Source: Escherichia phage vB-EcoS-XT34
Direction: 5' to 3' (one strand)
Length of the DNA stretch: 50,596 nt
Sequence record: OR767160
Part shown: positions 1 to 50,576 of the stretch, piece by piece
Position numbering within the stretch: position 1 is the first letter of the stretch
Layout of the letters: every line of letters begins with the position of its first letter
Position numbers and translations under genes: made by a program
The notes under the pieces: model-generated
The model's input: only the letters and a program-made list of their open reading frames with translations
What the model was told of the DNA's origin: nothing
Database searches by the model: none

Positions 1-110
1 TTGCAGCTATTGCAATGATTCACTTCACTATTGCACAGATAGCAATATTGCATCTATTGCAATGATGTTTTCGATTGTTGCGAATTGAGCAATGATTCAT
101 TGATGGGGGG
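1..110 (+). repeat. cluster of short direct repeats (ATTGCA / GCAATGAT) at the left end
   Basis: ATTGCA at about 9, 30, 46 and 56; GCAATGAT at about 12, 59 and 98. Confidence 0.6.
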
Positions 111-250
111 AATGATGGGGTGAGATCTGATCCCCTGATCGCCTGGTAGGATTTTCCCGCCACACGCTTCTAGCGCATACGCGTTATAAAAGTTACGCCG
201 TGTAGATGAAGAAGCCCACCGTAGGAATCGTGTACGCTTATCACGCAGAA

Positions 251-350
251 TTACGCCATGGTTACATTAAAATATCCTTATATAATAACCATTTATCTAT
301 ATTATTATTATTAATATATATATATGTAGATAATGTAGATAGTGGATATG
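251..350 (+). repeat. AT-rich element shared with 30586-30670
   Basis: TTACGCCATGGTTACATTAAAATATC followed by (TTA)n and (TA)n tracts; preceded by TTACGC-type short repeats. Confidence 0.7.
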
Positions 351-545
351 TGATATTGCGATTGTTTTCTATGATATTTTCCTACACCTGTAGGAATATG
401 ACGACATTGTAGGAATAAAAGGGCATGTAGGGGCCCATTTGCTAAAAATCCTTATCTACAAACTATACGCAGACTTTACATTGAGCTATATCTGGGGCGA
501 GAGGTCGCAAAACGTAACTAAGTCGAACATTTGCATCAATAACAC

Positions 546-574
546 TTGATAACATGTAACCACGCTGGTAGTAT
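546..574 (+). promoter_or_regulatory. candidate sigma70 early promoter (TTGATA-17-TAGTAT)
   Basis: -35 TTGATA at 546-551, 17-nt spacer, -10 TAGTAT at 569-574 preceded by TGg; sits upstream of the first + strand gene at 617. Confidence 0.45.
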
Positions 575-616
575 TGCACCCATCTTAACGAAGACCACCA
601 ATCAGGAGTAATATCT

Positions 617-1138
617 ATGTCAAATCATAATCAACACGTAAGCCTGGGCGATGTCGTCCGCTACATGGCGGAGCAGGCTCTTAAGGCCGACGACCGAACT
701 TTCCATGTCCCAATCCATCTAATAGCTCGCCAGGTTTACGGCCTCACATCTAGTGATATAGGAGGCATAAGTCGTGAGGATCTGGATGTAGGTGGCAAGT
801 ACAGTATGGCAAAGCTGAAGCCGTCATATGTCGCCAATACGGTAGCCAGGATGCCAGAGATACAGGCGGCAAACGTTCGTGCAAAATTTTCAATTAAGGA
901 TGGTGATTTCGGTGATGACGTCGAGGTTCGGTGTGCTTATCTGTCTTTGGTTGATGGCGCAATCCAGACAGGAAAGCGAGTGAAGGCAAACTGCCAGATT
1001 GCAGAGAAGGCTGTGAGCGACTTTAAGGTCAAAATACTCAAGCTGATGCCATCCGTGACTAACTTTGAGGGCGATGAGATTACAGGAGCCATCAAGGCAA
1101 TCAAAATGTACCAGGAAATGATTAGGGAGACGAAATAA
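617..1138 (+). CDS. hypothetical early protein
   Basis: 173-aa ORF, first gene of the rightward early block, stop overlaps the next start (ATGA-type coupling). Confidence 0.5.
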   Translation: MSNHNQHVSLGDVVRYMAEQALKADDRTFHVPIHLIARQVYGLTSSDIGGISREDLDVGGKYSMAKLKPSYVANTVARMPEIQAANVRAKFSIKDGDFGDDVEVRCAYLSLVDGAIQTGKRVKANCQIAEKAVSDFKVKILKLMPSVTNFEGDEITGAIKAIKMYQEMIRETK

Positions 1139-1701
1139 TGGGGATGTTTGATTTTAACGAAGAGAAGCTGACAGATGAGCAGATTATGAAGATTGCTACG
1201 GAAGATGGGCTTCCACCACTACGAGTTGCAATCAATGCTAACGGATACCGACAGTCACAAAAGTACTGGTGCGAATTAGAAGTTATGCGTCGCGCAAACC
1301 TAAATCGTGAACAATGCGTCGTGGTTGAAAAGATCTGGAAGCAAGCGATAAATGGAAAAGGCGTTGTGGGAGTTCGCTCAACATATGAGGCGATCAGAAA
1401 GGTCCAGCCGTTCGTCGAGCGTAATGGAGTAATGAATAACCTGATTGACAATATCCTACCATCACTACAGGACGCGGGAATCATTTGCCTTATTGGTGAC
1501 AAGATATATGCACACCCATACCTGGTGGGCATGTATGGGAGAGACATTCACAAGTGGTGCGACTCATGGAGATCGGTTGAGCGCAAATCTCATAGCAAAT
1601 TGCAGTCAAGCTCAGACATGATTCATGGCTATGATGCCGATGAGGTGGAGAAGGCCATCCAGTTCTACCGGAAAGCGAAATCTCTCCTGAACGGTGAATA
1701 G
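1138..1701 (+). CDS. hypothetical protein, mini-paralog of the 527-aa protein at 46425-48008
   Basis: N-terminus MFDFNEEKL..LPPLRVAINANGYRQSQ and central NGKGVVGVRSTYEA..CLIGDKIY match the N- and C-terminal ends of the 527-aa protein; stop TAG lies inside the box motif. Confidence 0.6.
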   Translation: MGMFDFNEEKLTDEQIMKIATEDGLPPLRVAINANGYRQSQKYWCELEVMRRANLNREQCVVVEKIWKQAINGKGVVGVRSTYEAIRKVQPFVERNGVMNNLIDNILPSLQDAGIICLIGDKIYAHPYLVGMYGRDIHKWCDSWRSVERKSHSKLQSSSDMIHGYDADEVEKAIQFYRKAKSLLNGE

Positions 1702-1741
1702 CACGAATTGCTAAACAACAAATCGGGTAGTCAGCTATGAT
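1699..1741 (+). promoter_or_regulatory. box element (TAGCACGAATTGCTAAA) plus -10-like TATGAT at 22 nt
   Basis: palindromic box overlapping the stop codon, fixed spacing to a -10-like hexamer, then CA-rich leader and GAGGA before the next ATG. Confidence 0.5.
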
Positions 1742-1765
1742 TACCCTATCAACAACGGAGAGGAA

Positions 1766-1978
1766 ATGATTATGGAAACTGTACGCATTGACGATGTTCA
1801 CTTTGACCAAGCAGAGGTCAGAGTAACGATGGGAACCGTTCGCGGTCACGTTATCAGTCTTGACTTCGATCCTGACGACTACGGAGATTGTCAAACGCTG
1901 ATGCAATACTCACCTGACGCGGCCCGCAAGTTAGCGGCGGCGTTAATACTGGCGGCTGACGAGGCGGAGAAGCAATGA
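1766..1978 (+). CDS. hypothetical protein
   Basis: 70-aa ORF with GAGGA RBS, downstream of box element. Confidence 0.4.
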   Translation: MIMETVRIDDVHFDQAEVRVTMGTVRGHVISLDFDPDDYGDCQTLMQYSPDAARKLAAALILAADEAEKQ

Positions 1979-2126
1979 GTAGTCACCATAATGAGCACGT
2001 AATGCAGCTATACCGACATAATCTCAAGTCACTTGGTCGGTTGGGTAAGTAAAATAACGGGCCGTTGTATGCCCATTTAGAGGCACTACGTGAGCATGAA
2101 AATGGCTCACTGCATGGAGAATCAGA

Positions 2127-2345
2127 ATGAACAATGAAGAAATGATTAAGATCCGTATTATCAAGTCTCCGTATCAGGGCGTTGATAAAAGCAAGCTGCC
2201 AGTAGTGGCGATGGCCTGGAAATATGAAGAAGGTGATGCGGGTCCGATGTACATGGTTGACGCAGATTTCATTCCGGCGCTCAGCAAGAAAGGTATGCCA
2301 CCTGGCGACTGGCCCTTTGCAGAGGATGAGGTGGAAGTTTTATGA
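2127..2345 (+). CDS. hypothetical protein
   Basis: 72-aa ORF with RBS, co-oriented in early block. Confidence 0.4.
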   Translation: MNNEEMIKIRIIKSPYQGVDKSKLPVVAMAWKYEEGDAGPMYMVDADFIPALSKKGMPPGDWPFAEDEVEVL

Positions 2346-2458
2346 AATTCTATGACGTGATTAAACTGTTCATGCCACTGTTGATGCCACTGTTGATGCT
2401 TGGATTATCATTGGCTACCCTGTTCCTGGTGATTATTTTTCTGGTGTTTGTTAAATAG
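2342..2458 (+). CDS. small hydrophobic peptide (38 aa, candidate membrane protein)
   Basis: hand-translated MKFYDVIKLFMPLLMPLLMLGLSLATLFLVIIFLVFVK; ATGA overlap with upstream stop; contains a 12-bp tandem duplication; below the ORF track size cut-off. Confidence 0.3.
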   Translation: MKFYDVIKLFMPLLMPLLMLGLSLATLFLVIIFLVFVK

Positions 2459-2498
2459 CACGAATTGTTAAACCTTCCGCAAGGCCATTTGATATAGT
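2456..2498 (+). promoter_or_regulatory. box element (TAGCACGAATTGTTAAA) plus -10-like TATAGT at 22 nt
   Basis: same architecture as the other box elements. Confidence 0.5.
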
Positions 2499-2531
2499 GG
2501 CCTTATTGAAGCAAGCAACCAATCAGAGGAT

Positions 2532-2741
2532 TTGCAGATGTTTACTGAAAAAGAGTTTGAGCAGTTTTTCCTCCTGGTCAATATGTCAGGCAGCTCGGAC
2601 CAGATGGATCGCATAAACAGCCGTCTTGAGATGCCAAAGTTCATCGAAGCGGTAGGCCGCAAGACCTGCGATCGCATGTGGCACTTAATCGAGCATTACG
2701 GCGTAACACCAGCAACACTTAAATCGGAGCACATGAAATGA
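2532..2741 (+). CDS. hypothetical protein
   Basis: 69-aa ORF with RBS AGAGGA. Confidence 0.4.
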   Translation: MQMFTEKEFEQFFLLVNMSGSSDQMDRINSRLEMPKFIEAVGRKTCDRMWHLIEHYGVTPATLKSEHMK

Positions 2742-3118
2742 AAGTACGCTTACTTAACCCGTCAATCTACTCCCTCAAACCAAACCAGAAACTTAGCGAT
2801 TGGAGCAAGGTCGCCGATCCGGAAAGTTACCCCGTAGTGGTTGAGACTGATGATATCAGCCATGAACCTAAAATCATTCAGGATGCATTCAAGGATCGCG
2901 TTCTTGTCGGTGCTAGTGAGCTGGATCGTGTTTTTAACATGGGTGGAGGTTACAAACGAAGAAGCGACACGCAGCTCGGCTGGTGGAACAATCAGAATAA
3001 CTCAAGTCGCCCACATATCCCTAGTAACTCCTGGGAGCCAGTCGGCCCGTTCGACTACTGGAACAAATTAAAGGCATCACGCGAAGTTGGCGAAACTGTA
3101 GGTAAGGGTTACTTATGA
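2738..3118 (+). CDS. hypothetical protein
   Basis: 126-aa ORF, start overlaps the upstream stop. Confidence 0.45.
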   Translation: MKVRLLNPSIYSLKPNQKLSDWSKVADPESYPVVVETDDISHEPKIIQDAFKDRVLVGASELDRVFNMGGGYKRRSDTQLGWWNNQNNSSRPHIPSNSWEPVGPFDYWNKLKASREVGETVGKGYL

Positions 3119-3294
3119 TTATTTTATGCATCGTGCTTTACATCCTGGGCGCGCTTCCGGTTTATGCAATTGCAAAAGATGTTAGCAATAGTGACAACAA
3201 GTGGTACGACATGGTAATCGTTGCCGCTATCTGGCCCCTGATCGTTGCGTTCGGAATTGTTAAAGGCGTCTACCAAAAGTTGAAGGAGCAATAA
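3115..3294 (+). CDS. small hydrophobic protein (59 aa)
   Basis: hand-translated MIILCIVLYILGALPVYAIAKDVSNSDNKWYDMVIVAAIWPLIVAFGIVKGVYQKLKEQ; ATGA overlap with upstream stop; not in the ORF track. Confidence 0.35.
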   Translation: MIILCIVLYILGALPVYAIAKDVSNSDNKWYDMVIVAAIWPLIVAFGIVKGVYQKLKEQ

Positions 3295-3296
3295 TC

Positions 3297-3515
3297 ATGC
3301 AAGTCTACACTAACAGTAAAGGCATTGAATTTTGTGCGGTCGGCGATGTGGTCCTGCGCACTGGTGGCGGATACGGGATTATTAATATCTCAGGCATTAC
3401 GCAGGATCAGTTGGTAAAGGGTATCCAGGCTGGCATCTTTACCTATCACTCATCACTGACGGCTAAGCAGTATGTCACACTTGAAACTGCAATTCGCGCC
3501 GGATTCATCGAATAG
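3297..3515 (+). CDS. hypothetical protein
   Basis: 72-aa ORF, stop TAG is the first triplet of a box element. Confidence 0.4.
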   Translation: MQVYTNSKGIEFCAVGDVVLRTGGGYGIINISGITQDQLVKGIQAGIFTYHSSLTAKQYVTLETAIRAGFIE

Positions 3516-3556
3516 CACTTTTTTGTTAAAACTTGCTCGGAGACATTAGCTATAGT
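3513..3556 (+). promoter_or_regulatory. box element variant (TAGCAC-T6-TGTTAAA) plus -10-like TATAGT
   Basis: box with a 1-nt longer core, 22 nt to TATAGT. Confidence 0.45.
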
Positions 3557-3597
3557 GTCTCCTGTCAAGTGAACACAAACCAACTGAGGAATCACAT

Positions 3598-4353
3598 ATG
3601 AACAGCATCAACCGTTATATCCCTGTGTCAGTGCCAACCAGCGTCAATATTCACGGCGTCGGAATGCAATCCTGCGACGATGGAGCATGGGTATCCTACG
3701 CAATGCATAAAAAAGAAATCGAGTCCTTACAGGCACGTTTAAAGGCCTTAGAATCGACTCAAAAACATCAAATTTCTGCACCGTCGATTATCGCTGACCA
3801 TGTTGAGCAGGCAATCAAAGAGGCTGTAGGTAAGCTGGTGCACGAAGTATGTGAGAAATTGCTCAAGGATTTGCCTAAGTACAATGGCGATCCGTGTCAC
3901 AGCACTGTCGATGCATTCGTGAATGAGCTTGCGGCTGGCCCAGGGAAAACCGTTAAGGATGACACTTGCAGCGTCGAAGATGAATTGACGAAGAACGGAA
4001 AGTTCAATTTCGGGACTAATTTTGGTGAAGGTAAGTCGCTTACAATGTCAGTAGGCGAATGCGAGTCAGCGAATGATCGCAAGGTGGCTGTTTGCTACCA
4101 TGTTAACGGAAATATGTTTATCAACGGTTGCGAGTATGAGTATGAAGCTGATGAATGTGAGCCAGGGTGTGAGCCGAGCATTATTCATATCGTACAAGAT
4201 GCATTCGTCTCTGATTTAAAAGGAGATTATCGCTGGAATGCCAGGAAGATTGGTAAGAGGATTGGTGATATTATTGAGGACAAGGCAATTCTTAACGATA
4301 CATATGCGATCATGAGTCAAGATGGCGTAGTTGCTAAATTCTACATTAAATAG
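3598..4353 (+). CDS. hypothetical protein, Cys-rich C-terminal half
   Basis: 251-aa ORF, N-terminal predicted coiled coil, several Cys pairs near the C-terminus. Confidence 0.5.
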   Translation: MNSINRYIPVSVPTSVNIHGVGMQSCDDGAWVSYAMHKKEIESLQARLKALESTQKHQISAPSIIADHVEQAIKEAVGKLVHEVCEKLLKDLPKYNGDPCHSTVDAFVNELAAGPGKTVKDDTCSVEDELTKNGKFNFGTNFGEGKSLTMSVGECESANDRKVAVCYHVNGNMFINGCEYEYEADECEPGCEPSIIHIVQDAFVSDLKGDYRWNARKIGKRIGDIIEDKAILNDTYAIMSQDGVVAKFYIK

Positions 4354-5713: not shown

Positions 5714-5756
5714 TAGCACGAATTGCTAAACCCGCTCCGGCGGGTTTTGTTATAGT
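5714..5756 (+). promoter_or_regulatory. box element (TAGCACGAATTGCTAAA) plus -10-like TATAGT
   Basis: canonical box, spacer contains the GC hairpin cccgc-tccg-gcggg, 22 nt to TATAGT. Confidence 0.5.
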
Positions 5757-6951: not shown

Positions 6952-7190
6952 TGTTTGGATTAACCGATCCGCAGATGAACGCAGTAAAGGCCAAGGCCAA
7001 GCAATTAAACGCAGCGTATGCCACCCTTAGCAAGAAAGATCGCAAAGATGATAAGATGGTTGCCTCAATTATTACCAAGCACCATGAGGCCGTAGCGACC
7101 ATTATATCGCGCTCTCGTTTTATTTGGATTGCTGGATACATAGAGGGTAGATGCGGAAGGCGGGATGATGGAGAATGTATTTATGATTGA
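6951..7190 (+). CDS. hypothetical protein
   Basis: 79-aa ORF; its 3-prime end overlaps the HNH gene start, so boundaries are uncertain. Confidence 0.3.
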   Translation: MFGLTDPQMNAVKAKAKQLNAAYATLSKKDRKDDKMVASIITKHHEAVATIISRSRFIWIAGYIEGRCGRRDDGECIYD

Positions 7191-7683
7191 TATAAATGAT
7201 TACCTTTCATATGATGAGTCAAGCGGCGACCTAATATGGGCATTTAAATTAAGCAGAAAGGTAGTTGTCGGATCGGTAGCTGGATGCAAGTGCAAAAGAG
7301 ATGGTTATATAAAGGTTAGGTTTGAAAATAGGCTTTACTTGGCTCATAGGATTATATGGGAGTCTGTAATGGGGAGAATACCAGAAGGGATGCAGATTGA
7401 TCATATAAACCACAATAGGTCAGATAACAGGGTGGAAAATTTAAGGCTTGTTACGCATATCGAAAACGGCATGAATCAATCAAGGAGCGTTAGAAACAAA
7501 AGCGGTGTAACTGGAGTGTCATGGCAGAGCAGGGATAAGAAGTGGAAGGCGGTAATTTCAAAGGATAGAAAGGCAATCAGTCTTGGGTATTTCAATAACT
7601 TCGATGATGCGGTGGCTGCTAGGCTTAGTGCTGAAATTGAATTTGGTTACCATGTAAACCATGGAAGAAAATTAAAGGTGTAA
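7165..7683 (+). CDS. HNH homing endonuclease with AP2-like DNA-binding domain (copy 1)
   Basis: HRIIWE..IDHINHNRSDNRVENLRLVT motif plus C-terminal AARLSAEIEFGYHVNHG; paralogous to five other copies. Confidence 0.75.
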   Translation: MMENVFMIDINDYLSYDESSGDLIWAFKLSRKVVVGSVAGCKCKRDGYIKVRFENRLYLAHRIIWESVMGRIPEGMQIDHINHNRSDNRVENLRLVTHIENGMNQSRSVRNKSGVTGVSWQSRDKKWKAVISKDRKAISLGYFNNFDDAVAARLSAEIEFGYHVNHGRKLKV

Positions 7684-8552: not shown

Positions 8553-9071
8553 ATGAAAGACGAAAACTTCACCAGTCACGCAAACGAGAAGGTTCGAATC
8601 GGTAACTTCAAAGAGCTATACAATAAAAAGTATGGTGACATTGCCAACCTGAACCATCGTCACCCAATGACGCCTGAGACTGTATTCAACCTTGCGGTTA
8701 AATATTTCTCATGGGCCGAGGACCAGGCAATCAAGGCCATTGAAACGGCGAGCTTCCAGGGCTTTGTCACTGAGAACCTAGTGCACAAGCCGCGAGTGTT
8801 CACGCTCAACGGCTTCCAGCTTTATTGCGGCGTTACCTCCGGTGCGATCCAAAGCTGGCGCGCGTCGCCTGGATTCTCTGAGGTAATGGAGTTCATAGAC
8901 TCAGTAATTATTGAACAGAAATATCAGTTAGCTGCGTCCAACCTTATCAACGCCGGATTCGTAGGCAAAGACATTGGTATCAACAAGGCGGCAGAAGTTA
9001 ACGTGAGCAATGTTGTGAATGACAAGCAAACCATAGAGGATGCCGTGAAAAGCGTACTGGATAAGATTTGA
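8553..9071 (+). CDS. terminase small subunit (candidate)
   Basis: 172-aa ORF directly upstream of the large terminase gene; assignment by position and size only. Confidence 0.45.
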   Translation: MKDENFTSHANEKVRIGNFKELYNKKYGDIANLNHRHPMTPETVFNLAVKYFSWAEDQAIKAIETASFQGFVTENLVHKPRVFTLNGFQLYCGVTSGAIQSWRASPGFSEVMEFIDSVIIEQKYQLAASNLINAGFVGKDIGINKAAEVNVSNVVNDKQTIEDAVKSVLDKI

Positions 9072-9130: not shown

Positions 9131-10720
9131 ATGTCTAACAAGATATTGATTTGGGAAGATCTGACACCAAAGGAAAAGGCGGTAATAAAGGTGATGAGCG
9201 AAAGGTCGTTTAGTGACTTTATGCGCATATGGTTCGCGCTGATACAGGCTCAGAAGTTTAGATCTAACTGGCACTTCAACTACCTTTGCTGGAAGGTTGA
9301 GCAGATAATCAACGGTGAGATACAAAACATCATATTCAACATCACTCCAGGCTCCGGTAAGACTGAGATATTCTCTATACACATGCCAGTTTATTGCATG
9401 TTCAGAAGCGAGAAGATAAGGAACCTGAACCTATCGTTCTCTGATAGTTTGGTGAAGGATAACGGGATCAGGACTCGTGAAATTATAGGATCGGATGAGT
9501 TTCAGGAGCTGTGGCCATGCAAACTAGCCAAGGCGTCTGGTGGTGATATTACCGCTCTAAACCAAAAGGAAAAGGCATGGCTAACTCTAACCTCTCGCGC
9601 GATCGGTGGTCAGGTAACTGGTAAGCGTGGCGGTTATATGGATGATGGCTTCACCGGAATGCTGACGCTTGATGACCCTGAGAAGCCGAAAGACCTATAC
9701 TCAGCAGTAAAGAGAAAGGCTGGTCATACGCTGTTAAAGAACACCGTTCGATCGCGAAGAATGAATGACAAGACACCATGCGTTGTTGTCCAGCAGCGGC
9801 TACACGTAAACGATGCGACTTGGTTCCTGATGAATGGCGGTATGGGTGGGATGAAGTTTGAACAGGTAATCATTCCGGCGCTGGTAACTGAGGAATATAG
9901 AGACACGCTTCCTGACTGGTTGAAAGAGGAATTTGACAGAGACGTGCTATCGTCCCCATCGGTAATGATTGACGGTGTTGAGCACTTCTCTTTCTGGCCT
10001 GCGAAGGAAAGCGCAGAAAGCCTACTGGCGTTGCGCGAAGCTGACCTGTACACATTTGAGTCTCAGTATCAGCAGAAGCCAATCGCGCTTGGCGGTAACG
10101 CGTTTAAGTCGGACTGGTTCCAGTATTACGGCGACGGCGAAAAAGCCAACATGCCAAAACCGGATCGCTTCGAATACCTTTTTACCACTGCGGATACTGC
10201 GCAGAAGGCCGAGGAAATTCACGACTACAGCGTCTTTGTTTTGTGGGGCAAGTATAAGGATCGCGTATATTTCATCGACGGCATTCGCGGTAAGTGGGAA
10301 GCGCCGGAACTTGAAAAGATGGCCCTTAAGTTTTATGGCAACTGCTTCAAATGGGCGAAGGATAACAAGACTTCACTGCGCAAGGTTTACATTGAAGACA
10401 AGGCGAGCGGTACTGGCCTGATCCAGTCAATCAACAAGAAACTACCGATTGACATTACGCCAGTTCAGCGAAATACGGATAAGGTAACTCGCGCAATGGA
10501 CGCGGCGCCAATCATGAAAGCGGGGCGCTGTGTTTTTCCCGAGTCTCACGAAATGTTAAGTGACATGGAGGTTGAGTTGGTTTCATTCACGTTTGATGAT
10601 TCATCTCCTCACGATGACATTTGCGATAACGTCTTTGATGCTGTAAACTTTGAGATGAACATGTTGGATGATCCAGTATCTAGAATGAAGCGTTTAGCCG
10701 GATTAAGTAAGGGGATGTAA
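9131..10720 (+). CDS. terL: terminase large subunit
   Basis: 529 aa, N-terminal ATPase with Walker A TPGSGKT, C-terminal acidic nuclease-like region, followed by portal gene. Confidence 0.85.
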   Translation: MSNKILIWEDLTPKEKAVIKVMSERSFSDFMRIWFALIQAQKFRSNWHFNYLCWKVEQIINGEIQNIIFNITPGSGKTEIFSIHMPVYCMFRSEKIRNLNLSFSDSLVKDNGIRTREIIGSDEFQELWPCKLAKASGGDITALNQKEKAWLTLTSRAIGGQVTGKRGGYMDDGFTGMLTLDDPEKPKDLYSAVKRKAGHTLLKNTVRSRRMNDKTPCVVVQQRLHVNDATWFLMNGGMGGMKFEQVIIPALVTEEYRDTLPDWLKEEFDRDVLSSPSVMIDGVEHFSFWPAKESAESLLALREADLYTFESQYQQKPIALGGNAFKSDWFQYYGDGEKANMPKPDRFEYLFTTADTAQKAEEIHDYSVFVLWGKYKDRVYFIDGIRGKWEAPELEKMALKFYGNCFKWAKDNKTSLRKVYIEDKASGTGLIQSINKKLPIDITPVQRNTDKVTRAMDAAPIMKAGRCVFPESHEMLSDMEVELVSFTFDDSSPHDDICDNVFDAVNFEMNMLDDPVSRMKRLAGLSKGM

Positions 10721-33234: not shown

Positions 33235-35517
33235 TTAACCAATAACTGACATTCTTGAGTTGGCAAATGTATAAGCATCAGTTTTGTTAGGGAACTGAGC
33301 CAGGAAGTAATCACTAATCCTTACAACACCACCATTAGTTGACTGGAAACGAAGCCTTGCCGTTCCTGAAATAGATGCCTGGCCAACTCCATATGTATGA
33401 ATCCAGTTACCATTAGGCTTGGTATAAATCTCTCCAATAAGGATTGAATCAGCAACTGCAGCTGAAACATCCCCACTAACAACTTTAAGACTACAACCCC
33501 ATACAACCTGGTAATACTGAGCAATGTTGGCAGTTGGAACATCTAAATACAGAGTGTATCCTGCAGGAATCGATAGCTGAGCGCAGCTGTCACTAAGAAC
33601 GCCATCAGCAACAGCTGTTGCATCAACAGTTCCCGTGCCCAAAAATCGCCACGGACCAGCGTCAGAGAACGTCTTGGCATGTAAAACGCCGCCAACAGAT
33701 GACCTTCTAATCCTGCCCTTAATATCTGTAGCTCTTACACTTGCGCTCAATCCTTGACTTAGTGGGAATGAGTTATCAGCTATAGACTCAACAAGTATGT
33801 CACCACCTACGTAACCGCCGATTATCAAATCTCTGGCTATTAACCTGCTACCAGCGTCAATACTAATATCGTAAACACCTGATGCATTATCAATTCGACA
33901 GTTTTTAGTTAGAAGGGTTGAGCCTTTTAACTCAATGTTGTTTAAGTAGCAATTTTCAGCAACAACCATTGGCATATTCTCTAATTTTAGCTGTCTTGGT
34001 TTCTGCGATACGCCATCAACAATAACAGCCTGTTCAGTCGCAACTCCCTCAAGCCATACGTTTGAAATTGTTGGAGTAACAGTGGGTGTAACACCATTAC
34101 CTTTAAAGTAAATCCCACCGCCAGGGCAAGCCTCAAATGTACAATCCCTTATAGATACCCCATCAACCCCACTACCCTGCAAAGACCCACCAAGTGTTGA
34201 GCCATCAATGTAAATACCGTAAGTGTGAATGCCAGCAAAGTGGCAGTCCCTCCATGTATCACTACCAGTGTGCATTGCAACGTCCGATCTTGCTATGTGT
34301 CCATAGTTACACTCAAGGTAACTACAATGTTGGTAAGTGTTACCAATGTTTCCCTTTGGTTTCCTTAAGCCTATATCAAGGCTATCGAACGCAATATGAT
34401 CAAAGTTCCATCTGCCATCAGTATTAGACTGACCGAAAGTTATGCCGATGCCATCCCTTGTACCAATCTCACCTTGAATAAGGAAGTTTGAGGCGTGACG
34501 ATACTGCCACAACCTTGATGACTCAGTAAGAGTAAAGCTTGCCTGGTTGGGTCCTGGGTTGAACCTTGCTCCGTAACCTACACCAATGAGGTTAGCACTC
34601 CCAGAATAATACTCACCAGTGTAAATACCACTGGTGATAAGCATGTCGTTACGCTCTTCAGTTGAGTTTATCGCAGTCTGAAAGTCGGCGTAGTTACCAG
34701 ACCTGTTAATATCATTAATGTTCTGAGTTAGAGTCCTCTCACCAATCCTTACATTGTCACCACCAGATGAAGATAAAAGCTGATCCCTTAATGAGTTATC
34801 GCCAACGGCAACCCATGCGCCTGGAGCTACACCACCAGTTGATTCTGGAGTTGAATTTTCTGGTATTGTCTTTGGTAATGGGCCATTCCACAAATAAGAT
34901 GAAACATCATTACCATTAAAATAAAAAACCTGCTGAGTTTTTGATTCAATTGTCCCGCCACCATCAAATGATAACACAAGAGCGCCAGAAACTGAGTTTG
35001 CAGCGTTCTGAGCTACTCCGGCAAAATAAGAAGAACTATTTGCCTGCTCTGTAGCTATATCTTTATCAGATGAAACCTGGATGGCATCAGCAGCAACCTG
35101 CGCAGCATCAGTGACAACTTGCTGATACTGAGTGTTTACCTGATTTACTTCTTCCTTGAACTTAACACCATCAAACTGATTGAATGCATCAACTGCCTCA
35201 GCAACCTCAGTTTCACGAGATTGGTAGTAACGCAATGTTTCAGCCACATCCTGAGCCAACCCCTGGACGGTAATACCATCGTGAGCAAGAATTGAGTATT
35301 GAGTTCCGGTTGGTGCGGTAAATCCTTTGTCGTTAAAAACTCGAATTTCTGTATCGCTGATAATTTCAGCAATCGTAACAATGCTTGCTGGCGTGGTATT
35401 GAAAATCATTGTTGCTCCAACGCGAATTAGCGTTAGTGGTTGACGCCAGGTAGTCCCAACGCCGTTAACTGTACCATCTGCCGCTAAAGAGGCAGTTCCT
35501 GCATCATAAATAGCCAT
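33235..35517 (-). CDS. tail fiber / tailspike with probable beta-helix domain (candidate depolymerase)
   Basis: 760 aa, Gly/Ser/Thr/Asn-rich repetitive composition with interspersed Cys motifs such as CTFEACPGGGIYFKGNG. Confidence 0.55.
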   Translation of the reverse strand: MAIYDAGTASLAADGTVNGVGTTWRQPLTLIRVGATMIFNTTPASIVTIAEIISDTEIRVFNDKGFTAPTGTQYSILAHDGITVQGLAQDVAETLRYYQSRETEVAEAVDAFNQFDGVKFKEEVNQVNTQYQQVVTDAAQVAADAIQVSSDKDIATEQANSSSYFAGVAQNAANSVSGALVLSFDGGGTIESKTQQVFYFNGNDVSSYLWNGPLPKTIPENSTPESTGGVAPGAWVAVGDNSLRDQLLSSSGGDNVRIGERTLTQNINDINRSGNYADFQTAINSTEERNDMLITSGIYTGEYYSGSANLIGVGYGARFNPGPNQASFTLTESSRLWQYRHASNFLIQGEIGTRDGIGITFGQSNTDGRWNFDHIAFDSLDIGLRKPKGNIGNTYQHCSYLECNYGHIARSDVAMHTGSDTWRDCHFAGIHTYGIYIDGSTLGGSLQGSGVDGVSIRDCTFEACPGGGIYFKGNGVTPTVTPTISNVWLEGVATEQAVIVDGVSQKPRQLKLENMPMVVAENCYLNNIELKGSTLLTKNCRIDNASGVYDISIDAGSRLIARDLIIGGYVGGDILVESIADNSFPLSQGLSASVRATDIKGRIRRSSVGGVLHAKTFSDAGPWRFLGTGTVDATAVADGVLSDSCAQLSIPAGYTLYLDVPTANIAQYYQVVWGCSLKVVSGDVSAAVADSILIGEIYTKPNGNWIHTYGVGQASISGTARLRFQSTNGGVVRISDYFLAQFPNKTDAYTFANSRMSVIG

Positions 35518-36604: not shown

Positions 36605-37078
36605 TTATTCTTTAGCTTTCCGTGCTGCTTCGTTTGCTGCTTTAATTTTTCGCCATGATCGACATTCAGGCTTAGTGGCTAACTCAGCCTCAGTTACTAC
36701 GCGCAGCATGTGACGCTTTTTGCAACGCAGCGTCAGCGGCTTACCGTTCCCATCGAATTGCAGATCCGGTCGGCAGAATGTAGCGCGGAAGCCTTCGCCA
36801 GTTCGCTTATATCGGTTGTGCGCCAGTTGAGCACCGCGCGCCGACATCATGCCGCGTTTAAACCACTCTTCGACCGCCTGGCGAGTAACTTTTAATTGCT
36901 TCGCCATGTTCGCCTTGCTGCCGTAGAACTCAAATACAATATCAAGTCGCGCCCTTAATCCGGCCTTTACTTCATCCTTGAGAACATAGTAACCTGACGG
37001 TCGCTTACGCTGCTTCTTATCTTCCGTGCGGATAGTTCCGTTGTTACCGTTAAGAGTACGCTTATCAGTTGCATTCAT
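36605..37078 (-). CDS. helix-turn-helix DNA-binding protein (candidate transcriptional regulator)
   Basis: 157-aa basic protein with HTH-like segment MAKQLKVTRQAVEEWFKRG; a box element lies in its own upstream region. Confidence 0.5.
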   Translation of the reverse strand: MNATDKRTLNGNNGTIRTEDKKQRKRPSGYYVLKDEVKAGLRARLDIVFEFYGSKANMAKQLKVTRQAVEEWFKRGMMSARGAQLAHNRYKRTGEGFRATFCRPDLQFDGNGKPLTLRCKKRHMLRVVTEAELATKPECRSWRKIKAANEAARKAKE

Positions 37079-39653: not shown

Positions 39654-40069
39654 AAATTACAGATAAAGTTGATTACATTGAGTTTTACCCGGGCCCGGTT
39701 AAGTCATGCCATAAAGAGGATGACGAACAAATCTTTTGCTCTGACTGGGTTAAGTACAACTACCCAGAGATGGTATTTTTCCACACCGTGAATGAGGGTA
39801 AGAAAACCATTGGACAAGCAAGAAAAGACCAGGCAAAGGGTTTGCTCAAGGGTGTGTCAGACTGTATTTTTTTGATACCTGAATCCGTGAGAGGGAGGCA
39901 TCCATTTGGCGCAATAGAGCTAAAGAGGGCTGGAAAAACACAAGCCAGTCCAGTCAGTGCCGAACAGAAGTCCTTCCTTAAAAGCGTAAGAGAATCAGGA
40001 GGTTTTGCGGCTGTGGCATACGGACGTGAAGGTTTTCTTGCGGCATTTAAAGAGATGATTTCAAAATAG
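39650..40069 (+). CDS. VRR-NUC domain nuclease
   Basis: 139 aa, PD-(D/E)XK-like core with D..ELK motif (DCIFLIP..GAIELKRAG). Confidence 0.6.
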   Translation: MKITDKVDYIEFYPGPVKSCHKEDDEQIFCSDWVKYNYPEMVFFHTVNEGKKTIGQARKDQAKGLLKGVSDCIFLIPESVRGRHPFGAIELKRAGKTQASPVSAEQKSFLKSVRESGGFAAVAYGREGFLAAFKEMISK

Positions 40070-40109
40070 CACGAATTGCTAAAGACGAATCTCAAGGATG
40101 AGATACTAT
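40067..40109 (+). promoter_or_regulatory. box element (TAGCACGAATTGCTAAA) plus -10-like TACTAT
   Basis: box overlapping the VRR-NUC stop, 22 nt to TACTAT, CA-rich leader. Confidence 0.45.
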
Positions 40110-41388: not shown

Positions 41389-41619
41389 ATGAATAAGAAA
41401 GTTAATTTAAATGAAGATGGTCAGTTCCTTTTATTCCGTGCACTTGTTTGCCAAAATCTCTCAGATCTTGGGTTTAAGGGTGACGCCTGGGTATTCTCTG
41501 AATCACTTGATATGTCATTTGATTGCATAAAGGATGAGGAATATCGCTACTGGAAAGACTTAATAAAAAATGATGCCTCTGACTATAAGCGAGATTGCCC
41601 AGAAGATTTCGCAGAATAG
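41389..41619 (+). CDS. hypothetical protein
   Basis: 76 aa from the internal ATG with RBS; stop TAG begins a box element. Confidence 0.4.
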   Translation: MNKKVNLNEDGQFLLFRALVCQNLSDLGFKGDAWVFSESLDMSFDCIKDEEYRYWKDLIKNDASDYKRDCPEDFAE

Positions 41620-41659
41620 CACGAATTGCTAAACATACCCGCCACCGCGCGGGTATACT
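41617..41659 (+). promoter_or_regulatory. box element (TAGCACGAATTGCTAAA) plus -10-like TATACT
   Basis: spacer of 22 nt containing GC hairpin cccgc-caccgc-gcggg. Confidence 0.5.
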
Positions 41660-48469: not shown

Positions 48470-48512
48470 AATATACAGGAAAAGCCCCGAAGGGCTTTAG
48501 CAATTAGTGCTA
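48470..48512 (-). promoter_or_regulatory. box element (TAGCACTAATTGCTAAA) plus TATATT and CTCATCGAAACGA leader, leftward
   Basis: minus-strand box TAG is the stop codon of the methyltransferase-like gene; 22-nt spacer with hairpin agccc-ttcg-gggct. Confidence 0.5.
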
Positions 48513-50061: not shown

Positions 50062-50104
50062 TATTATGCCTCAATCCGTGAGGCTTCGTTTAGCAATTCG
50101 TGCT
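50062..50104 (-). promoter_or_regulatory. box element (TAGCACGAATTGCTAAA) plus CATAAT and TTCATCGAAACGA leader, leftward
   Basis: minus-strand canonical box, hairpin gcctca-cgga-ttgaggc in the spacer; coordinates within about 2 nt. Confidence 0.5.
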
Positions 50105-50107
50105 ATT

Positions 50108-50305
50108 TCAGAATTTAACTTTCTCGACTACCTGGACCATCTCGTATCCAAGGCGGTAGCTGTCACCAAGGATTAATCGGCCCATGAACTGATCGTTAGT
50201 GAAGCTCTCCTTACCCATGGTCCGAAGCGATCCGTGATGGATGATAGTGTCACCAACCTTCACGTCGTTCTTGTGTTTCAAAACAATTTTGTTAGCCATT
50301 ATCAA
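50108..50305 (-). CDS. hypothetical protein
   Basis: 65-aa ORF; the ATG two codons inside the track TTG start is the likelier start. Confidence 0.4.
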   Translation of the reverse strand: MIMANKIVLKHKNDVKVGDTIIHHGSLRTMGKESFTNDQFMGRLILGDSYRLGYEMVQVVEKVKF

Positions 50306-50312
50306 GTTCTCC

Positions 50313-50495
50313 TTACATGTGTTTCAGGTAGAAAGCGATTTCACGGATGTTGTCTTCTGGATGAGCCTTCACGACTACCGCGAACATCTTCTCAACCAGT
50401 TCCTTGGCGCTCTCAGGGTTATAACCTTCCTGGACCAGAAGAGCAATAGTGTTTTCGATGGTAACTGGTGAGTTCTTGTTGATGCGCTTAGCCAT
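50313..50495 (-). CDS. hypothetical protein
   Basis: 60-aa ORF with RBS upstream, downstream of a leftward box element. Confidence 0.4.
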   Translation of the reverse strand: MAKRINKNSPVTIENTIALLVQEGYNPESAKELVEKMFAVVVKAHPEDNIREIAFYLKHM

Positions 50496-50531: not shown

Positions 50532-50576
50532 AATAATAGCGAATCACACCTGATCGGTCATTAGCAAAAAGTGCTA
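50532..50576 (-). promoter_or_regulatory. box element (TAGCAC-TTT-TTGCTAA) plus TATTAT and CTCATCGAAACGA leader, leftward
   Basis: minus-strand box near the right end of the window, same spacing and leader as the other leftward copies. Confidence 0.45.

Follow-up and report, generated by a model that had tools for sequence, protein, structure and literature searches.

A conserved array of TTGC/GCAA half-sites in Escherichia phage vB-EcoS-XT34 as the probable packaging-initiation region of a headful T1-like phage

We analysed the complete genome of Escherichia phage vB-EcoS-XT34 (sequence record OR767160; 50,596 bp on one strand, 5' to 3', hereafter the window) with a focus on a repeat element at positions 1-96, probably part of the site from which packaging is initiated (pac). 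The window is a circularly opened genome of the genus Nouzillyvirus (Drexlerviridae, T1-like phages), and its first 1,200 bases are matched by ~25 phage records, the closest being phage p111 (96.8%) and other Nouzillyvirus members. In p111 and 50EP the end of the window (...GTCATTAGCAAAAAGTGCTATTCGTTCGATTTATGGATTG) runs on directly into its start (TTGCAGCTATTGC...), which indicates that the window is the whole genome opened at this point, and the identical base opens the record of the genus's type phage, ESCO41. Judged from these records, position 1 is a record-opening convention without a physical end, located ~46 nt left of the homologue of T1 position 1 and ~125 nt left of the read-mapped cut described below. 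A first-pass annotation of this DNA had entertained two settings for the repeats: a real genome end, which this shared record opening speaks against, or the divergent control region of a circularly permuted genome, which proved literally true.

Of the genes that flank the element, the last leftward one starts at 50495 and the first rightward one at 617, in agreement with the earlier statement that the DNA is non-coding up to 616; given that window end and start are contiguous in relatives, the divergent intergenic region between the two genes measures 717 bp, and the repeat element occupies its left side. An open reading frame (ORF) at 206-412, already doubted in the first-pass annotation, is unlikely to be a gene: it lacks a Shine-Dalgarno sequence, lies in AT-rich low-complexity DNA, ranges between 42 and 68 aa among relatives, is absent in TH21, and is unannotated in most related records. 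Its first ~30 codons are conserved in some relatives, and conserved DNA motifs lie in the same stretch. A 172-aa small terminase (8553..9071, + strand; PF16677 GP3_package, 34.8 bits with a cut-off of 29.4), presumed to read the element, is encoded 8.4 kb downstream, and its homologues in relatives are annotated as small terminase. The 529-aa large terminase gene follows at 9131..10720 (+ strand; PF17289 Terminase_6C, 42.7 bits with a cut-off of 22.6), so that a headful-type terminase with both small and large subunits is encoded, as in headful pac phages.

The basic unit of the element is a half-site, either TTGC (at 1, 10, 31, 48, 57, and 78) or GCAA (at 12, 42, 59, and 89), and ten of these fall within the first 100 bp vs 1.19 expected (P = 5e-7). 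Longer words built on them are similarly concentrated: ATTGCA occurs at 9, 30, 47, and 56, with 0.063 copies expected per 110 bp at its genome-wide rate (Poisson P = 6e-7); GCAATGAT occurs at 12, 59, and 89, its sole + strand copies in 50,596 bp, and not at all on the - strand; and CTATTGCA occurs at 7, 28, and 54, which accounts for all three copies genome-wide. Just to the right, TGATGGGG at 101 and 113 likewise represents both copies in the genome. These counts confirm the four ATTGCA and three GCAATGAT copies first reported for positions 1-110 and make them part of a larger half-site design. The repeat families recur with 47-nt spacing, arranging the half-sites into two tandem units of ~47 bp, each a nested imperfect palindrome: unit A at 1..47 (TTGCA-N4-TTGCAATGAT-N11-TTGCA-N6-GCAAT) and unit B at 48..95, with the same layout (TTGCA-N4-TTGCAATGAT-N11-TTGC-N7-GCAATGA). 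The earlier description as "iteron-like direct repeats" therefore holds in that the repeats are real, but not in its geometry, since the half-sites stand in both orientations and what is repeated is a pair of 47-bp palindromic units. At the right end of the array lies another imperfect palindrome, 73..96 (GATTGTTGC-GAATTGA-GCAATGAT), which is found family-wide, is the part of the element closest to the predicted cut, and is our candidate for the primary recognition sequence (hereafter the core).

The element is present in ~120 phage records from Nouzillyvirus, Rogunavirinae, and Braunvirinae, mostly without annotation. Across an alignment sample of 18 relatives representing three lineages, positions 1-96 are free of insertions and deletions except for a 1-nt insertion in one record, and column conservation is concentrated in the half-sites (96.9% vs 82.8% in spacers and other positions; P = 1e-6), with each half-site column of unit A either invariant or conserved to at least 90%. 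The ESCO41 element shares 97.6% identity with that of the window, and the adjoining DNA on both sides is without a megablast match; such an island of conservation that survives module exchange is as expected of an essential cis-acting site. A cis sequence is thus conserved among phages with related terminases, as for a pac site. The element is a DNA site, neither a gene nor an RNA, and it forms a fixed point between exchangeable early-gene modules.

Beyond these close relatives, we gathered 80 related loci through alignment of small-terminase homologues, each with up to 10 kb of upstream DNA (1.43 Mb in total), and found that the strict pattern TTGTTGC-N6-9-GCAAT matched only 25 times on both strands, with 21 of the 25 matches located in the intergenic locus upstream of terS. 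These on-locus matches are spread over 20 of the 80 loci and over several lineages, T1-like phages included, and among the core-bearing loci are several lineages whose small terminase is only ~50% identical. Klebsiella-type relatives carry a variant of the core, GATTGTTTC-N8-GCAA(T/C)GAT. The repeats upstream of the core vary by lineage: the window has TTGCAAT, Warwickvirus has GTAATCA, T1-like and Klebsiella-type phages share ATTCCA/TGGAAT, and TLS-like phages carry GATTTGATT or TAGACCGATTGGTC. The architecture is constant: a TAGCAAAAAGTGCTAT motif, then ~100 bp of repeats, then a purine-rich tract. The lineage-specific upstream repeats may serve as accessory recognition sites.

Packaging starts derived from sequencing reads in relatives fall directly to the right of these repeats, which is the decisive line of evidence and supports the pac alternative that the first-pass annotation had offered. 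PhageTerm analysis of phage Msk gave a unique terminus on the forward strand, at 36,862, whose peak falls within ~20 bases (PMC8421802); when aligned to the window, this packaging start is 37 nt past the T that ends the core's GCAAT. PhageTerm also supplied the terminus at which the UDF157lw record was re-opened (PMC10838988), and this point aligns 31 nt past the same T, and the Rao1 record also starts at +31 from the core, so that the three positions lie within 8 nt of one another (P ~1e-5 under arbitrary record opening). SU57 was opened at a PhageTerm end that coincides with a step in read depth (PMC7718038); this opening lies ~55 nt past the core and ~24 nt beyond the UDF157lw junction. In TLS, pac was placed by restriction mapping of a submolar fragment and assigned by resemblance to the pac of P22 (PMC11447400), and the position maps to the homologous purine-rich tract. 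The T1 and Rtp records both open inside the element, at window-equivalents 47 and 41, respectively; that of T1 has a terminal repeat annotated at 1..2800. Termini in the relatives thus did not map elsewhere in the genome, and the repeats beside them were conserved. Extrapolating the +31 to +37 distance of the relatives to the window, the cut is predicted at ~124-130.

The element is bordered on both sides by further conserved features. At its left border, 50562..50576 (TAGCAAAAAGTGCTA) is a copy of the palindrome TAGCA-N5-TGCTA that abuts the leftward promoter-like site and is invariant in all relatives compared. Between the core and the predicted cut lies a purine- and G-rich tract (97..123, + strand) that contains the two TGATGGGG copies and GAATGA; the latter, at 110-115, is invariant in the 18 relatives, and a purine-rich tract is found at this position in most lineages, including TLS. 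The predicted cut zone itself is at the centre of an inverted repeat, GGGG-TGAGATCTGAT-CCCC (117..135), with GATC at 124 and 129 inside it and a third GATC at 137 just outside. This trio (14 bp, 124-140) is the only cluster of three within 20 bp among the 201 GATC sites of the genome, and two of them read TGATC(C/G); the cluster is present in p111, TH21, and TH27 and absent from ESCO41, Msk, and the Rogunavirus relatives. Right of the predicted cut, CGCCTGGTAGG (140..150, + strand) is a block in common with T1 (80-90, within GTTCGCCTGGTAGTC) and other lineages, and its reverse form, CTACCA, is located at the Msk cut; we conjecture that it may be a right-hand recognition arm.

A recognition site of the packaging enzyme at this locus is expected for the T1-like family, several of whose members have been reported as pac or headful phages (PMC8421802, PMC10838988, PMC11447400). 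Since the repeats are conserved and adjoin the packaging starts of relatives, they are most likely the site that the packaging enzyme recognises, and we consider it on balance probable, with appreciable room for doubt, that positions 1-96, together with the motif at 50562-50576 and the G-rich tract to ~150, constitute the pac region of a headful T1-like phage. Under this proposal, a ring of small-terminase subunits, which presumably binds the TTGC/GCAA motifs, would recognise the half-site array on the replicated concatemer, that is, the two 47-bp palindromic units and above all the core GATTGTTGC-N7-GCAATGAT at their right end. The large terminase would then make the first cut ~30-40 nt to the right of the core, at ~124-130, and packaging would proceed rightward, with later cuts determined by head filling and yielding terminally redundant, partly permuted chromosomes. 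The first chromosome of each series would begin just to the right of the repeats, leaving them outside it like the left arm of the SPP1 pac.

Several observations weigh against the pac interpretation or limit its precision. The cut in XT34 itself is an extrapolation from relatives, and because the segment to the right of the core is T1-like in the window, and not of the Msk/ESCO41 type, the +31 to +37 rule is carried across a mosaic boundary. The openings of the T1 and Rtp records are ~80 nt left of the PhageTerm sites, and record starts overall form two clusters, at 41-53 and 122-130. Across subfamilies the DNA element is 80-85% identical vs only 55-67% for the small terminase protein presumed to read it, and overall small-terminase identity is no predictor of repeat type: Warwickvirus has a terminase 57% identical to that of XT34 yet carries GTAATCA repeats, and Braunvirinae, at 56%, carry repeats like those of the window. 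Each small-terminase cluster does have a single type of upstream repeat (49 loci), a pattern that is inseparable from phylogeny and common descent. A search for satellites or transducible elements returned no copy of the element in 5,426 Escherichia coli genomes or 72,556 plasmids, and hence no satellite or plasmid offers an independent functional witness. Finally, the element is 60-170 nt upstream of an early promoter, which leaves room for a regulatory role.

That regulatory role is the most substantial of the rival explanations. Consensus scans of the intergenic region identified a promoter-like site for the leftward early genes (50533..50561, - strand; ATGACC, 17-nt spacer, TATTAT), whose -10-like box is retained in the alignment of relatives, and one for the rightward genes (546..574, + strand; TTGATA, 17-nt spacer, TAGTAT, the second hexamer being preceded by TG), 43 nt ahead of the first gene at 617 and with similar hexamers seen by eye at its place in Rtp, T1, and TLS. 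Both sites face away from the element, so no predicted promoter would transcribe it. The repeats could, in principle, be operator or enhancer sites through which a phage or host transcription factor acts on these divergent early promoters, mainly the leftward one at 50561-50533, in which case the closeness to the packaging cut would be incidental or both functions would be housed in one region. The position of the element between promoter-like sites in the 717-bp divergent region would suit such a role, as would palindromic half-sites such as TTGCAA and GCAATATTGC, typical of dimeric regulators, and the adjoining TAGCA-N5-TGCTA motif, which precedes many transcription units. It is that motif, however, that other early promoters use, while the motif of the element is found nowhere else in the genome; T1 has a second TAGCA motif on the other side of the element, which shows that their relative position varies; and the family-wide core keeps a fixed distance from the mapped cuts, not from the promoter. 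We therefore regard the operator explanation as unlikely, though worth keeping in view.

The repeats have also been likened to the iterons of a replication origin, to which an initiator or a primase-helicase would bind in order to open a nearby AT-rich tract. Compatible with this view are the number and conserved spacing of the short repeats, the presence at 270-345 of an AT-rich (TA)n tract with other repeats on its flanks, and the fact that no origin of T1-like phages was described in the literature we found, but the half-sites lie in both orientations and do not form a same-sense array, the true direct repeat being the pair of 47-bp palindromic units. Moreover, the AT-rich tract is ~175 bp away and has flanking repeats of its own (GTAGGAAT, TGTAGAT, and TTACGCC) that make better iteron candidates, the adjacent genes include no recognisable initiator (the ESCO41 map places primase and helicase 14-37 kb away), and GC skew tracks the direction of transcription, with no origin signal at the element. 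These flanking repeats belong to a second repeat-rich segment (160..470), outside the 1-110 region and including the doubtful ORF 206-412, which is a candidate origin or regulatory region: it contains GTAGGAAT at 221, 390, and 409 with an inverted copy at 376-386, a tandem 19-bp repeat at 389-426, TGTAGAT at 201, 325, and 334 with an inverted copy at 452-460, and two copies of TTACGCC around the (TA)n tract, and T1, Rtp, and TLS have the same architecture built of different motifs. With its own repeats flanking an AT-rich tract, 160-470 is the better origin candidate, and nothing specific supports the first-pass suggestion of an origin within 1-110; we judge an iteron role for the element very doubtful. 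An older proposal, as cited in PMC8421802, placed the pac site at ATATA repeats in this segment; the read-derived termini lie ~150 bp to the left of those repeats. There is a still smaller chance, close to negligible in our estimation, that the element encodes a small product, whether a 31-codon Cys-rich ORF, a minus-strand 47-codon ORF, or a structured RNA. The plus-strand ORF (50589 to 87; MDCCSYCNDS...) is open in 11 of the 18 relatives, some database records annotate a "membrane protein" here, and RNAalifold draws two nested hairpins. Yet that ORF loses its start or is interrupted in the other 7 relatives and lacks a Shine-Dalgarno sequence, its Cys codons arise simply from in-frame reading of the TTGC repeats, the minus-strand ORF (163..20) has internal stops in 10 of the 15 relatives examined, and variable columns come in runs without 3-nt periodicity. 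As for RNA, a permissive-threshold Rfam scan of 1-1500 yielded no match for the element (best E = 3.3), its top hits being at chance level with 14.5-19.3 bits (E of at least 2), far below gathering scores, and in the 18 relatives none of the 23 pairs predicted by RNAalifold had meaningful covariation, with the single-strand fold no better than that of shuffled sequences (z = -0.87). RNA structure was accordingly rejected, as the predicted fold merely restates the palindromic repeats.

Returning to the probable pac region, the surrounding genes and motifs offered several additional observations. The TAGCA-N5-TGCTA palindrome is an intergenic motif with 17 copies (at most one mismatch) vs 1.76 expected in shuffles; besides 50562-50576, the copies include 50091-50105, 48498-48512, 1699-1713, 5714-5728, 40067-40081, and 41617-41631. 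They are oriented, in that rightward gene blocks have TAGCACGAATTGCTA and leftward ones its complementary form, and T1 has one copy on either side of its pac-end element. In TLS, 18 oriented 21-base intergenic repeats have been described (PMC11447400), and the XT34 motif is probably the same thing. The first rightward gene (617-1138, + strand) encodes a DUF7174 protein (163 bits) and keeps its position in relatives across subfamilies. On the left side of the element, p111 carries a NinC-like gene (3096-3902 of the p111 locus; 807 bp) at the place of two small genes in the window (50108-50495; 60 and 65 codons), and the gene content of ESCO41 differs again from both. Further downstream, an HNH endonuclease of 172 aa (7165-7683, + strand; HNH_3, 78 bits, plus a weak AP2 match) is encoded ~870 bp upstream of the small terminase gene; because the small terminase of ESCO41 starts ~580 bp earlier, 7165-7683 looks like a homing-endonuclease insertion relative to that phage. 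The small terminase is itself mosaic, in that some homologues are near-identical to the XT34 protein over the N-terminal ~140 residues but have a C-terminal tail of Braunvirinae type, which suggests that the tail was exchanged together with its large-terminase partner. In the TH27 record (MT446401), which starts inside the element at window-equivalent 53, the first 402 bp are identical to the last 402 bp; this terminal identity is probably an assembly overlap and not a physical terminal repeat.

Laboratories and fermentations are commonly contaminated by T1-like phages, which are also generalised transducers and candidates for phage therapy. In the literature we found, their pac was so far only a map position and their recognition sequence was without a definition, being given as "not identified" for SU57 (PMC7718038), so that the core, the anatomy of two units, and the cut distance of +31 to +37 represent a modest addition. 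A defined core with a predicted cut would allow the genome records of the family to be opened consistently, make packaging-specificity experiments and engineered transducing or packaging vectors straightforward, and render phage satellites that copy the site recognisable, while the general understanding of headful packaging is unchanged.

Among known systems, the closest are the pac ends of T1, Rtp, and TLS, which lie at the homologous locus (position 1 of T1 and of Rtp corresponds to window 47 and 41, respectively). T1 and Rtp have, as the window does, the core GATTGTTGC-N7-GCAATGA followed by a G- or purine-rich tract, and T1 packages by the headful mode from left to right, as proposed here. 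The differences are in the upstream repeats, which are ATTCCA/TGGAAT in T1 and TAGACCGATTGGTC and GATTTGATT in TLS, compared with TTGCAAT in the window. T1 is also able to start packaging at a site in phage lambda between P and Q. The T1 junction from -2 to +17 (TTGTTGCATGGTGTGCAAC) has four exact 11-13-nt matches in lambda (at 33458; 39898, in P; 27164; and 42844, in ninG), each with an E of at least 0.2; we dropped this link, as no match was significant alone and the T1 junction segment differs in the window. The iterons of plasmid and lambdoid-phage origins resemble the element in being short, spaced, non-coding repeats near AT-rich DNA, and differ from it in that the element has mixed half-site orientation, no adjacent initiator gene, and packaging termini at its side.

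P22 shares with XT34 the family of its small terminase (gp3, PF16677) and headful packaging with a preferred start and a unidirectional series. Its pac, in work ascribed to Wu et al. (2002), is reportedly one asymmetric sequence of 22 bp that lies within the small terminase gene, and the cuts spread over ~120 bp. The candidate here, by contrast, is intergenic, an array of palindromic half-sites that covers ~100 bp at a distance of 8.4 kb upstream of terS and has no sequence resemblance to the P22 site, and the reported scatter of ~120 bp in P22 compares with a PhageTerm peak within ~20 nt in Msk. The P1 pac, which contains Dam-methylated TGATC(A/G) hexamers, is similar in having arrays of a short motif by the cut, and the window has three GATC sites at its predicted cut in a genus that encodes a Dam methylase; P1 is dissimilar in that the main repeats here are TTGC/GCAA without GATC and the GATC cluster is limited to a sublineage. 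In a broader but speculative model, quite unlikely to hold in full, the pac of Drexlerviridae would be bipartite: a 23-bp core GATTGTTGC-N7-GCAATGAT would fix the cut ~31-37 nt downstream, exchangeable accessory modules (TTGCAAT, ATTCCA/TGGAAT, GTAATCA, or GATTTGATT) would tune recognition, and in this Nouzillyvirus sublineage the triple-GATC inverted repeat would let the phage Dam methylase gate cutting, as in P1. The cosB of lambda is, like the pac sites of SPP1 and P1, a site with multiple terminase contacts. In the SPP1 pac (pacL-pacC-pacR), which overlaps the start of the terminase operon, several small-terminase contacts flank the cleavage region, and although its motifs are unrelated to those of XT34, it shares with the arrangement proposed here a recognition arm on the non-packaged side of the first cut.

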